From the NCBI GenBank assembly GCA_045644685.1, contig JAZRHI010000015.1:76095-140094 (forward strand): DNA of 64,000 nucleotides, given 5' to 3'. Shown here one piece after another: positions 6,267 through 58,660 of this stretch. Each line of letters opens with the position of its first letter. The first letter of the stretch is position 1. A program made the translations under genes and the position numbers. This DNA is from Candidatus Onthomorpha sp. (GTDB lineage Bacteria > Bacteroidota > Bacteroidia > Bacteroidales > P3). Below the pieces are notes generated by a model. It was not told the DNA's origin. It made no database searches and saw only the letters and a program-made list of their open reading frames with translations.

Positions 6267-7661
6267 TTATTTTGAAATAATCCAATCTTCTTCTGTTGTC
6301 CACGTTTTTTTGATGACTATGTTTTTGTTGTAAATAAATACTTTTTCGCTTTCTTCCAGTGTGTTAAAGTTTGCTTTGTCCCATTGTTTGTTACAATTTT
6401 GGTCTATTGCAATTTTCGCTTTGTAAGTGCCTTCTTTGAGATATTTAAAGGTGATTGTGTTGGTGTTTTTCGGCATTTGTTCTTCTAAAACTATCTTTCC
6501 TGCCATGTTATATAAGTAACAAATATAGCAAGCATTGTTTGAAATTGAGTCTTTTATGTTTAGGGTTAGGCTTCCGTAATATTCTGGTGAAGAGTTATAG
6601 AATTTGTGTTTGTATTCTTTGTTTTTTTGATTGTAAATGTTGCTTATGCTATTTGCTTTTATGATTATTTCATGTTGTTTCGCTACATCTAAATTGCTAA
6701 TGAAAGAATAGATTGTGTCATTCGTTTTTGTGAAATTTACTTCCGTAGTGTCGCTGTCTTTTATCAAAAGGGCAGGGAAGGAGTCTGTGGAAAGGGTGTC
6801 TTTAAATACTAAATCGTAACGTCCTTTGAAAAAGTCGAGGGTGTCTTTTTCGTATTTATTGATATGAAATAAAGTATCCCTTTTTTCTTGCTTAGAAGGG
6901 TTTTGTAAATTCTCTGTTTTTTCTTCAACAAAGGCGGTGTAATAGAATTTTTGTTTTTGAAGTCTTGTTTTTGCTGTGGAGTCTGGAAGATAGGGTTTAA
7001 GGATTTCGTTAGAAAATCCAATACCTTCGTTCGCTAAGTCGTATATTTTGTTTTGGTTTTTATCGTCTAATATAAAGAGTTTATATTCTCCGTTTGCAAG
7101 GTTATGAAATCTGAAAACGCCATTGCTATCTGTCTTTGTCAAATAGTCAGATGGGTTTTTCTTTATGTAAGTTGTGTCGAAATTTGAATACAATAGGACA
7201 TATTTGTTTGGAATTGCTGTTAGCTCAAAGGCATCTAAAATTTTTCCTTCGTACCATAGCGTGTCAATATGGTCGCCTGTGGAAAAGGCAAAGGAGAATC
7301 CGTTTAGGCGATTGCCTTCATTGTTATCTTTTATGGCATTTGCAAAGTCTATTATATAGGTTGTGTTTTCTTTTAGCGAGTCTAAGCCTTTTATGTGTAT
7401 GCTTTTGAGGTTTGAGGTTATCTCCGGATTTGGTTTTATTTGAGGAGAAATCAATACATTCGTATTAGGATTTTCTAAAACAATGTATTCGTTAAACTTT
7501 ATTTCGATTTCGTTTCCTTTAAAGTTTATACTGTTCTGATAAGGCTTGCTATCAACAAACACAGGTGGCTGATTGTCTTTTGGACCTCCGCTTGGAGTTA
7601 CAATCTTTGCGCAAGAAAATATCAGAAAACTTGTAAAAAATATCGCAACTAATCTATTCAT
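6267..7661 (-). CDS. Lipoprotein with bacterial Ig-like (Big_5/SbsA-type) domain
   Basis: 464 aa. Lipoprotein signal MNRLVAIFFTSFLIFSC. The SGGPKDNQPPVFVDSKP... segment is typical of Big_5 lipoproteins. Confidence 0.6.
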   Translation of the reverse strand: MNRLVAIFFTSFLIFSCAKIVTPSGGPKDNQPPVFVDSKPYQNSINFKGNEIEIKFNEYIVLENPNTNVLISPQIKPNPEITSNLKSIHIKGLDSLKENTTYIIDFANAIKDNNEGNRLNGFSFAFSTGDHIDTLWYEGKILDAFELTAIPNKYVLLYSNFDTTYIKKNPSDYLTKTDSNGVFRFHNLANGEYKLFILDDKNQNKIYDLANEGIGFSNEILKPYLPDSTAKTRLQKQKFYYTAFVEEKTENLQNPSKQEKRDTLFHINKYEKDTLDFFKGRYDLVFKDTLSTDSFPALLIKDSDTTEVNFTKTNDTIYSFISNLDVAKQHEIIIKANSISNIYNQKNKEYKHKFYNSSPEYYGSLTLNIKDSISNNACYICYLYNMAGKIVLEEQMPKNTNTITFKYLKEGTYKAKIAIDQNCNKQWDKANFNTLEESEKVFIYNKNIVIKKTWTTEEDWIISK

Positions 7662-7666
7662 ATTTG

Positions 7667-7674
7667 CAAAGGTA
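7667..7674 (-). promoter_or_regulatory. -7 box (TACCTTTG) only 5 nt from the ATG of the Ig-like lipoprotein gene
   Basis: The minus strand reads TACCTTTGcaaatATG, which implies a leaderless or near-leaderless mRNA if the box is used. Confidence 0.35.
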
Positions 7675-7684
7675 AGAAATAAAT

Positions 7685-7768
7685 TTCGTTTTCTTAGGTT
7701 TAGAAAAATATTTCTTAGGTTTAGAAAATTATTCCTAAGGATTAAAAAAATAACTCTTAGCTTTATTT
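7685..7768. repeat. 21-nt-phased CTWAG mini-array B (4 units)
   Basis: Cores 7693-7697, 7714-7718, 7735-7739, 7756-7760 (21-nt spacing). The fourth unit is the left arm of the 18-bp hairpin, whose right arm carries CTAAG 7782-7786. Confidence 0.92.
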
Positions 7769-7793
7769 GAGCAATATAAAGCTAAGAGTTATT
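7741..7793 (-). terminator. Strong intrinsic terminator of nhaD built from two inverted repeat units
   Basis: Perfect 18-bp stem, 7749-7766 with 7776-7793, 9-nt loop. T-run follows on the minus strand (plus-strand A-run 7744-7750). Confidence 0.8.
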
Positions 7794-7816: not shown

Positions 7817-9106
7817 CTATGCTGCGTGGAAAAATAATGTGCTCATTAAATAGAATGTTCCTGCACCTGCAAGGTATCCTATCAAAGCCCAAAGTGTGAT
7901 TTTCTTCAAATACCAAATGAAGTCTATTTTTTCCATTCCCATAACTGCAACACCTGCTGCAGAACCAATGATTAACAAACTTCCTCCTGTACCTGCGCAG
8001 TATGCAAGGCCTTCCCAGAATGCTCCATCAACTGCAAAATTTCCTATTGCTTCAATTGGATACATTCCCATAGCGGCTGCAACCAATGGAACGTTGTCTA
8101 TGATAGATGAAAGCACACCTATAACTACGTTAATCACATAAACGTTTCCTAATTTATCAAGAGCTCCTGCTAATTGACCAAGATGACCTGCTTCATTCAA
8201 GCAACTAACTGCCATAAGAATACCTAAGAAGAATAAAACAGAAGGAACATCAACTTTTTGTATGATTGCAGTAACGTTTAATCTTGAATAATTTGTTGGA
8301 TTGTTCTTGTGCATAATTTCAGTCGTTATCCAAAGAATTCCTAATCCGAATAAAATTCCAAGATATGGAGGAAGGTGAGTTATAGTCTTAAAGAAAGGAA
8401 CGAATAACAATAATCCGACACCCATAATTAAGATTATCAAACTTTGTTTTCTTGTAACGCTTGAAGTACCTTCCGATTCTACTTTTTCAGGTCTTTCAAG
8501 TTTTCCTTTCATTGTCGTACCTATAATTGCAACTGGCACAAGTAATGAAACCAATGAAGGAATGAATGTTTCTAATATAATGTTTCCTGCTGTGATGTTA
8601 CCTTTTATCCAAAGCATAATAGTAGTTACGTCTCCGATTGGCGACCATGCACCACCGGCATTCGCAGCAAGAATTACCATACCTGCAAAAAACCAACGTG
8701 TGTTTTTGTCTCCAACAAGTTTTCTAAGCAATGCACACATAACAATCGAAGTTGTTAGATTGTCAAGCACAGCTGACATGAAGAATGTAAGGATAGAAAT
8801 AATCCACAACAACTTTCTTTTGCTTGTTGTTGTGATTTTGTCTGTGATAATTGAGAAACCGTCGTGTTTATCTACGATTTCAACAATTGTCATCGCACCT
8901 AAGAGGAAGAAAAGTATTTCTGCTGTTTCCCCAAGGTGATGAATCAAAGCGCCGTCTTTGATTCCTGGTCCGAATAGAGCAAATACTGCCCATATTACTG
9001 CTGCTAATAATACTGCTGTTGCAGATTTGTTAATTTTTAACGGGTGTTCCAACGCTATCATGGCATATCCTATGACAAAGATAGCAATCATCAGTCCGAA
9101 ATACAT
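7817..9106 (-). CDS. nhaD: NhaD/ArsB-superfamily Na+/H+ antiporter
   Basis: 429 aa, about 11-12 TM helices. Contains the FFLLGAMTIVEIVDKHDGF segment characteristic of NhaD-type antiporters. Confidence 0.7.
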   Translation of the reverse strand: MYFGLMIAIFVIGYAMIALEHPLKINKSATAVLLAAVIWAVFALFGPGIKDGALIHHLGETAEILFFLLGAMTIVEIVDKHDGFSIITDKITTTSKRKLLWIISILTFFMSAVLDNLTTSIVMCALLRKLVGDKNTRWFFAGMVILAANAGGAWSPIGDVTTIMLWIKGNITAGNIILETFIPSLVSLLVPVAIIGTTMKGKLERPEKVESEGTSSVTRKQSLIILIMGVGLLLFVPFFKTITHLPPYLGILFGLGILWITTEIMHKNNPTNYSRLNVTAIIQKVDVPSVLFFLGILMAVSCLNEAGHLGQLAGALDKLGNVYVINVVIGVLSSIIDNVPLVAAAMGMYPIEAIGNFAVDGAFWEGLAYCAGTGGSLLIIGSAAGVAVMGMEKIDFIWYLKKITLWALIGYLAGAGTFYLMSTLFFHAA

Positions 9107-19041: not shown

Positions 19042-19076
19042 GAAGAAGAAAAATAAAACATTCTTTTCAGAAATCA

Positions 19077-19118
19077 AAAGCCCAAAAGAATTTTGTCTTT
19101 TGGGCTTTTATTTTTTTT
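19077..19118 (+). terminator. Intrinsic terminator of the methylmalonyl-CoA mutase gene
   Basis: 13-bp stem AAAGCCCAAAAGA 19077-19089 with TCTTTTGGGCTTT 19096-19108, 6-nt loop, then TATTTTTTTT. Confidence 0.85.
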
Positions 19119-19134: not shown

Positions 19135-19197
19135 AAATAATCCTAAGAAATAAAAAATTAAACCTAAGGAAGAAAAAAATATTCCTTAGGAAAAAAA
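19135..19197. repeat. 21-nt-phased CTWAG mini-array D (3 units)
   Basis: CTAAG 19143-19147, CTAAG 19164-19168, CTTAG 19185-19189. Starts about 17 nt after the mutase terminator. A degenerate CTTTG sits in register at 19122-19126. Confidence 0.85.
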
Positions 19198-19353
19198 ACT
19201 TCAAAAAAGTATGTGCATATATAAACAATAGACAATCTAATAATTTCCTTTGAAATGATAGCGAAAGGTTGGGCTAACGCACGCGGTCATAAACACCCCG
19301 AAACAGTAAATATTGTTATGAAATAACCAACCATTCCATAAACGAAATAAAAA

Positions 19354-19395
19354 AGAGGATGTGTTTTCAAAACAACGCATTCTCTTTTTCGTTTT
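19354..19395 (+). terminator. Orphan intrinsic terminator upstream of the mgl promoter
   Basis: 12-bp stem (2 G-U pairs) AGAGGATGTGTT 19354-19365 with AACGCATTCTCT 19374-19385, 8-nt loop, then TTTTTCGTTTT. No CDS ends here. Confidence 0.6.
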
Positions 19396-45221: not shown

Positions 45222-45305
45222 ATTTTTCTCTTAGGTTTATTAAAATAAAGCTAAGGAATAATTTTCTAAACCTAAGAAATAATTTTCTATCTCTTAGGTT
45301 TAAAA
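45222..45305. repeat. 21-nt-phased CTWAG mini-array G (4 units, mixed orientation)
   Basis: CTTAG 45230-45234, CTAAG 45251-45255, CTAAG 45272-45276, CTTAG 45293-45297. Units 2-3 are reverse complements of the canonical unit. The nearest core is about 25 nt upstream of the rtcB ATG. Confidence 0.92.
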
Positions 45306-45419
45306 AATAGAATAGGCTTTCTGTATTTTTAGCACCGATAAACGTGTCTTGATCGTAATAAGGGCTAAATATTAACTTCATGTTTTGTATATTAAATAAA
45401 TGTTTTAGGTTTTGTTTTG

Positions 45420-52912: not shown

Positions 52913-52975
52913 TCTATTTCCTTAGAGATAATGGAAAAATCCTTAGGAATAATAAAATAATCCTTAGAAAAAATG
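52913..52975. repeat. 21-nt-phased CTWAG mini-array H (3 units)
   Basis: CTTAG at 52921-52925, 52942-52946 and 52963-52967. Lies between the rpmB terminator and the thioesterase ATG (52973). Confidence 0.85.
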
Positions 52976-58531: not shown

Positions 58532-58537
58532 AAACAG

Positions 58538-58567
58538 AAAAGCGGTTGATTTCAACCGCTTTTTTTA
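58538..58567 (+). terminator. Intrinsic terminator of the 1154-aa gene
   Basis: AGCGGTTG 58541-58548 pairs with CAACCGCT 58553-58560, 4-nt loop, then TTTTTTT. Confidence 0.85.
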
Positions 58568-58576
58568 TTTGTGTTA

Positions 58577-58660
58577 ATTTTTCTCTAAGAAATAATCCAT
58601 TTTCTCTTAGGAATATTTTTCTAATCCTTAGCTTTATTAAATTATTCCTTAGACTTATTT
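58577..58660. repeat. 21-nt-phased CTWAG mini-array I (4 units)
   Basis: CTAAG 58585-58589, then CTTAG at 58606-58610, 58627-58631 and 58648-58652. Starts 10 nt after terminator 58538-58567 and ends at the stop codon of the convergent arginase-fold gene. Confidence 0.9.

Follow-up and report, generated by a model that had tools for sequence, protein, structure and literature searches.

The region downstream of the nhaD-like gene

We analysed a window of 64,000 nucleotides (G000:C15:76095-140094), the whole stretch considered here, from a genome of 2.10 Mb in 37 contigs (G000; 33.5% G+C; completeness of 100% by marker genes). Its source, Candidatus Onthomorpha, is an uncultured gut Bacteroidales genus known from metagenome assemblies only. 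The minus strand of the window carries an nhaD-like transporter gene (7817-9091) that matches Pfam CitMHS, a transporter superfamily including NhaD, and 23 nt separate its stop codon from the start of a hairpin (7749-7793, minus strand) that should end its transcript. In this intrinsic-terminator hairpin, positions 7776-7793 pair with 7749-7766 to form a perfect 18-bp stem closed by a 9-nt loop (7767-7775). The plus strand over the region reads AATAACTCTTAGCTTTAT-TTGAGCAAT-ATAAAGCTAAGAGTTATT; on the minus strand, the 18-bp stem and the 9-nt loop are followed by UUUUUAAUC, and in the sense orientation of nhaD the U-tract UUUUU (7744-7748) adjoins the 3' side of the stem. RNA folding gave a minimum free energy of -22.1 kcal/mol for the whole 92-nt stretch and about -20.6 kcal/mol for the hairpin alone, with a z score of -5.2 and none of 200 shuffled sequences as stable. 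A second terminator scan overlooks the hairpin, its limit for the loop being 8 nt and the actual loop 9 nt.

Both arms of the hairpin are copies of a 21-bp unit, with the cores CTTAG (7756-7760) and CTAAG (7782-7786). The proximal arm (7749-7766) is the fourth unit of array B (7685-7768), whose four 21-bp units have their core centres at 7695, 7716, 7737, and 7758, so that this arm stands in register, 21 nt from the third unit; a weak fifth unit is centred at 7674. The two cores of the hairpin are 26 nt apart, which is outside the 21-nt register. Array B occupies the stretch between the hairpin and a candidate Bacteroidota -7 promoter box, TACCTTTG (7667-7674, minus strand), for a downstream secreted-protein gene (6267-7661); the TAnnTTTG motif is common 20-35 nt upstream of start codons in this genome. 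The first-pass annotation had described the fourth unit of array B and an inverted CTAAG partner as a perfect 18-bp stem with a T-run that terminates nhaD, and this structure was confirmed base for base. A stable stem-loop, a U-tract on the sense strand, and placement after the stop codon and before the next promoter are the features of an intrinsic terminator, and the hairpin is most likely the working Rho-independent terminator of the nhaD-like gene, where we infer that RNA polymerase stops.

Four further arrays in the window had been noted as adjoining strong hairpins, and two terminator scans found all four hairpins to be real. Array A (1012-1116, five units) is located in a convergent gap, 1 nt from an ordinary terminator on the minus strand (1118-1144). 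The ordinary plus-strand terminator of the methylmalonyl-CoA mutase gene (19076-19109) is followed 25 nt further on by array D (19135-19197), and that after the ribosomal protein L28 gene (52863-52905, plus strand) is followed 7 nt further on by array H (52913-52975). Array I (58577-58660), which extends to the stop codon of an arginase-family gene, begins 11 nt beyond an ordinary terminator that is bidirectional and lies between convergent genes (58536-58565, both strands). In total, 5 of the about 9-10 arrays of the window lie beside a terminator, a richer share than in the G000 genome overall.

Three other features of the window were observed. Array H overruns the called start codon of a thioesterase gene (52973) and leaves no room for a promoter; either this start codon is wrongly called or the gene is transcribed by read-through from the L28 gene. 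The segment after array D (19198-19395) contains about 150 nt of unique non-coding DNA and closes, ahead of the next gene, with another strong terminator on the plus strand (19350-19389, -17.3 kcal/mol), making it a candidate small RNA or leader; Rfam gave nothing in 19198-19395 and no family match in the whole window. Array G (45261-45308), between divergent genes, forms a long hairpin of inverted units that scores as terminator-like though no gene ends there; few other hairpin-forming arrays occupy gaps that lack a gene 3' end.

A family of 21-bp-phased arrays

Tandem Repeats Finder and a pattern search revealed arrays of 21-bp period with a CTTAG core in many places of the window. Across the genome, copies of CTTAGG are spaced by 21, 42, and 63 nt, and where CTTAGG is paired with the reverse-complement core, the core centres are again exactly 21 nt apart. 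The consensus of the repeat, a 21-bp CTWAG unit, is tTaTTyCTTAGgwTTAgaaaa. Searching the G000 genome with a position weight matrix and chaining the matches gave 225 arrays with at least 2 units and 164 with at least 3 units, counts that are lower bounds because the repeats probably break the assembly, arrays being found at contig ends. The size of the arrays is narrowly bounded (among the 164, 83 have 3 units, 76 have 4, and 5 have 5), a typical array comprising 3-4 units or 63-84 bp, and the orientation of the units is mixed in 100 of the 164. By location, 73 arrays of at least 3 units lie in same-direction gaps, 30 in convergent gaps, 27 in divergent gaps, 24 in called genes, and 10 at contig ends, where 6 of the 10 have an internal hairpin. 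No terminal repeats or target duplications are visible in the arrays beyond the units themselves.

A triple-phased CWWWG pattern occurs in 205-433 copies in 11 species of the genus, compared with at most 10 copies of a control pattern, and is rare in the remaining species. In several species without CWWWG arrays, the reversed pattern GWWWC is present instead in many triple-phased copies, again spaced by 21 bp (102 in G007, 98 in G011, 97 in G032, and 71 in G002), and appears to be a further 'dialect' of this type of array. Comparison of orthologous loci revealed that the same array sites are occupied in many species of the genus. A literature search for a 21-bp Bacteroidales repeat found nothing relevant, and the papers in the searched library that name the genus appear to be metagenome surveys or name lists, none apparently about such repeats.

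Three paralogous two-gene cassettes (G000:C3:68857-74462 and G000:C24:24347-27178) are each bracketed by near-identical arrays, and the arrays have therefore been copied together with segmental duplications. The cassette genes encode secreted proteins that bear a T9SS sorting tail and are about 430 and 380 aa long. In a brief look at the array-flanked genes, we found these paralogous secreted proteins and one AlbA_2-like protein, and no nuclease. The array core CTNAG corresponds to a DdeI-type site and CCTNAGG to a Bsu36I-type site. CTTAAG is present in only 15 copies in 2.1 Mb, where base composition would give several hundred by our own estimate, and this scarcity points to a restriction-modification system with an AflII-like target.

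Arrays and ordinary terminators across the genome

Arrays had been proposed to be preferentially welded to intrinsic terminators, with a genome-wide comparison of distances set beforehand as the refuting test. Our own simple scripts called 1715 genes (90.7% coding) and listed terminators as a hairpin plus a T-run, of which those with a dG of -12 or lower were taken as strong, giving 351 strong intergenic sites. Ordinary terminators were defined as those that are not part of the repeat, and adjacency as a distance of at most 25 nt. An ordinary terminator is adjacent to 24 of the 130 intergenic arrays, compared with 18.5 ± 4.1 under random intergenic placement; arrays are no nearer to ordinary terminators than random intergenic positions are. 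In same-direction gaps, with the promoter boundary placed at -33 and the 3' boundary at the stop codon or the terminator tail, arrays lie a median of 7 nt away from the 3' boundary and 12 nt away from that of the promoter, the arrays splitting 36 versus 37 between the two, and the next promoter is thus equally near. When gaps were matched for free length, ordinary terminators were equally frequent with and without an array (for instance, 9 of 17 versus 27 of 66 at 200-400 nt). On the scale of the genome, the proposed preference is not borne out by these comparisons.

The simplest reading is that the closeness of arrays to terminators mostly reflects the very short intergenic gaps of a compact genome. 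Arrays fill nearly all of the free DNA between transcription units and therefore touch both neighbours. A special attraction of arrays to ordinary terminators beyond this geometry is not supported, and the case is a caution that, in a compact genome, a repeat next to a terminator can be a matter of pure geometry.

Several observations bear on an alternative in which arrays have a functional link to terminators, acting as a boundary device such as a roadblock, an insulator, or a 3'-end processing site, and are adjacent to them for that reason. When each array was placed at random inside its own gap, 12.6 ± 2.0 adjacencies were expected (maximum 17 in 300 trials) against the 24 observed, which leaves room for some local coupling of array and terminator inside the gap beyond geometry. 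Arrays in same-direction gaps follow a terminator in 20 cases and precede one in 8. Per base, arrays are 2.2-fold enriched in convergent gaps (30 observed versus 15.6 expected, p = 3.6e-4), and part of this enrichment may come from hairpin-containing arrays retained there. Against these three points stand the random-placement, promoter-distance, and length-matched results above, as well as the 27 arrays in divergent gaps, where there is no terminator, and the 24 in coding sequence. Moreover, whole arrays show no polarity with respect to transcription (AT skew of 0.015; 95 CTTAG versus 83 CTAAG on the sense strand). On balance, a boundary device is unlikely to be the reason for the adjacency. 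A fixed register between the arrays and the -7 box was also considered and rejected: the distances are broad, and duplicated regions account for part of the small peaks at 12 and 32-33 nt.

Hairpins built from two inverted units

A unit-pair hairpin with a T-run, formed by neighbouring inverted units, is present inside 46 of the 164 arrays, and 46 of the 351 strong intergenic terminator-like sites (about 13%) lie inside arrays. The claim that a terminator stem can be made of two inverted units, raised for array B, is supported for that array and describes a common arrangement in G000. The unit-pair hairpins are about 40 nt long with a dG of -14 to -21, their AT-rich stems of 16-24 bp flanked by an A-run on one side and a T-run on the other, and the core spacing is exactly 21 nt in 52 of the 54 unit-built hairpins of G000, a rule from which the nhaD hairpin, at 26 nt, departs. 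A-U base pairs at the bottom of the stems, drawn from the flanking runs, could weaken termination.

The distribution of these hairpins depends on the gene context. Internal hairpins are found in 18 of the 30 arrays in convergent gaps (15 of them on both strands), 19 of the 73 in same-direction gaps, 3 of the 27 in divergent gaps, and none of the 24 in coding sequence, the frequencies in convergent and divergent gaps being 60% and 11% (p = 2.5e-4). Among the 30 convergent gaps that bear an array, 15 have a unit-built terminator only, 7 an ordinary terminator only, 3 both, and 5 none, and some terminator is present in 83% of convergent gaps with an array versus 80% of those without. Internal and ordinary terminators are seldom found together (odds ratio 0.26, p = 0.008). 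Over the 8 nt that follow unit-built hairpins in same-direction gaps, the sense strand has 6.1 T versus 3.3 T on the antisense strand (p = 4e-4). A 399-kb sample of the sister species G010, whose arrays have CTTTG and CTATG cores, gave a similar picture, with hairpins in 8 of 22 arrays of gaps containing a 3' end and in 0 of 5 in divergent gaps, and with unit-built and ordinary terminators never together.

It is also conceivable that a palindromic repeat family, selfish or neutral, REP- or MITE-like, and maintained by template switching between the arms, gives rise to the hairpins as a structural by-product with no role in termination. The mixed orientation of most arrays, from which inverted neighbours easily arise, and the ten arrays at contig ends, a position typical of repeats, are both in keeping with such an origin. 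It leaves unexplained, however, the 5-fold excess of hairpins in convergent over divergent gaps, the T-run on the sense strand, and the rarity of hairpins beside ordinary terminators; it is further weakened by the absence of visible terminal repeats and target duplications and of any match to a Y1 (RAYT) transposase.

Conservation in sister species

Comparison of the nhaD gap across the genus revealed that an array is present in most species and that its sequence changes in concert, more quickly than the flanking DNA, which favours the by-product reading. The array cores are CTTAG in G000 and G001, while G014, G015, G017, and G018 have CTTTG arrays and yet keep the CTTAG/CTAAG hairpin. In all, 6 species keep the hairpin; 97% of the cells are paired and there are 2 compensatory pairs, a weak signal. 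In G008, G010, G013, and G016, a CTTTG array adjoins a GC-rich hairpin of the ordinary type, which has a T7 run and occupies the same place on the sense strand of nhaD, and in G011 and G012 there is an ordinary terminator and no array. Here, the position of the array is kept across the genus even where the type of terminator differs, an observation favourable to a boundary device.

Two convergent gaps gave stronger signals, although the sister species are related, and the following counts hence come from non-independent samples. At C26:34954, the unit-built hairpin is kept in 11 species and the paired cores co-vary (CTTTG/CAAAG, CTTAG/CTAAG, CTTTC/GAAAG, and CTTGA/TCAAG); in 8 pairs both partners have been substituted, no shuffle among 500 scores as high as the real alignment, and the paired share of cells is 91%, versus at most 65% with the partner slid. 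At C29:9411, the hairpin is kept in 8 species; both partners differ in 9 pairs, the score is again beyond all 500 shuffles, and pairing extends to 92% of cells versus at most 63% with the partner slid; ordinary hairpins stand in its place in four more distant species. An ordinary GC-rich terminator thus replaces the unit-built hairpin in the species without it at both the nhaD locus and C29:9411, which a by-product of the repeat family leaves unaccounted for, and the one distant species recovered at C26:34954 apparently has an ordinary terminator in place of the hairpin. In two species, the core motif is lost and the pairing retained. To judge from these alignments, what is conserved at the hairpin positions is the structure and not the motif. 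Nevertheless, template switching or gene conversion from one arm of a DNA palindrome to the other can also yield paired changes when RNA is not under selection, so that palindrome-templated repair is able to mimic compensatory change. Taking all of this evidence together, we regard a mere by-product as distinctly unlikely.

In G011 and G012, the nhaD-like gene is 92-93% identical, and other loci of these species are only about 74% identical to G000. The homology of the gene in these two species begins exactly at the stop codon, which suggests that the nhaD-like gene was recently exchanged between species with a breakpoint at the terminator.

Interpretation

We favour a joint reading, to which we give a probability of roughly 70%: the hairpin after the nhaD-like gene is a Rho-independent terminator made from two inverted units and is one instance of a genome-wide rule, by which arrays are otherwise non-polar gap fillers and unit pairs are selected at gene 3' ends. 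As whole objects, the arrays would be non-polar elements that take up the scarce free DNA separating the end of a transcription unit from the promoter or end that comes next, and gap filling alone would put them within a few bases of whatever terminator exists. Where neighbouring units face each other, they would form a 16-24-bp AT-rich stem between an A-run and a T-run, often the layout of a bidirectional terminator. Selection would then keep such unit-pair hairpins at gene 3' ends in place of ordinary terminators. The unit-pair hairpins probably act as gene-end stop signals, as indicated by their structure, context, strand, substitution for ordinary terminators, and covariation, and the building of terminators by repeat units is supported as a general feature of G000.

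As for the arrays themselves, we offer tentatively the possibility that they are docking rows for a genus-specific factor. Such a factor would recognise the near-palindromic core from one side of the helix, with its specificity shifted between species (CTTAG, CTTTG/CTATG, GWWWC), and the arrays would delimit transcription units. One stretch of DNA would then do double duty, offering protein sites while double-stranded and, wherever two units are inverted, giving RNA hairpins in place of conventional terminators.

Terminators derived from a genome-wide repeat are already known in Proteobacteria, from uptake sequences and REP-like elements. The same outcome is seen here in an uncultured gut Bacteroidales and from a different, apparently undescribed repeat that forms strictly 21-bp-phased mini-arrays. 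About one in eight of the strong terminator-like sites of G000 is a repeat copy, which matters for the prediction of terminators and operons in such genomes. The arrays also provide a clean natural case of selection on the orientation of repeat units according to gene context.

Comparison with known systems

Searches for the components of known systems gave the following. Secretin (PF00263) has no match in the G000 genome, which is 100% complete by marker genes, and pilus ATPase (PF00437) gives only P-loop matches of 40-49 residues and no genuine PilB/PilT-type ATPase. ComEC was found in G000 and likewise in the B. thetaiotaomicron control. The transposase Y1_Tnp/RAYT (PF01797) has no match in G000, while control genomes do match. 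Solitary strong units number only 12-44 in G000, and 89-95% of the strong units are inside arrays. USS/DUS membership was rejected on the scarcity of solitary copies and on the pilus and secretin searches, and REP/RAYT membership on the cognate transposase, even though mixed-orientation extragenic clusters near gene 3' ends are present.

Uptake sequences occur as inverted pairs in Rho-independent terminators of Pasteurellaceae and Neisseria (Kingsford et al. 2007, PMC1852404), such pairs form terminators (PMC5217627), and DUS dialects differ between species (PMC3630211). The first-pass annotation had likened the repeat to these signals: the part of the likeness that concerns inverted repeats forming terminators stands as a functional parallel (PMC1852404), and the identity of the repeat as an uptake sequence is not supported. 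That the repeat is a USS/DUS-like uptake signal whose inverted pairs in terminators are a by-product of uptake-driven spread is very improbable, for although its inverted pairs form terminators, its core varies among sister species in a way that recalls DUS dialects, and ComEC is present, the units sit in phased arrays of 3-4 and not as dispersed singles, the strict 21-bp register is foreign to uptake sequences, the secretin and pilus ATPase are not found in a complete genome, and ComEC does not discriminate, a Bacteroides control having one too. Like USS/DUS, then, the Onthomorpha repeat is a genome-wide short repeat that gives both arms of many terminator stems and has 'dialects' in related species. 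It differs in that nearly all of its units are in strict 21-bp-phased arrays of 3-4, mostly intergenic, that its core is only 5 nt and near-palindromic, that only about a quarter of its arrays form hairpins, and that type IV pilus uptake machinery was not found in the genome.

The arrays resemble the REP/BIME elements of enterobacteria and pseudomonads as short extragenic repeats in clusters of mixed orientation, enriched past gene ends and forming hairpins that affect mRNA 3' ends. Unlike in REP/BIME systems, the genome has no RAYT (Y1_Tnp), the unit is AT-rich where REP is GC-rich, the register is exactly 21 bp in any orientation of the units, and arrays do not grow beyond 3-5 units. Correia (CREE/NEMIS) and ERIC-type elements are intergenic repeats of about 100 bp with dyad symmetry that are able to end or process transcripts. 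The Onthomorpha arrays are likewise repeated, intergenic, and dyad-symmetric, but they are phased tandems inside, lack visible terminal inverted repeats and target-site duplications beyond the units themselves, and appear to occupy positions that are conserved between species rather than polymorphic, the same sites being filled in many of them. With ordinary bidirectional intrinsic terminators, finally, the unit-pair hairpins share the layout of A-run, hairpin, and T-run and the placement between convergent genes, whereas their stems, which at 16-24 bp are longer and also richer in AT, are all copies from a single repeat family and not unique sequences.
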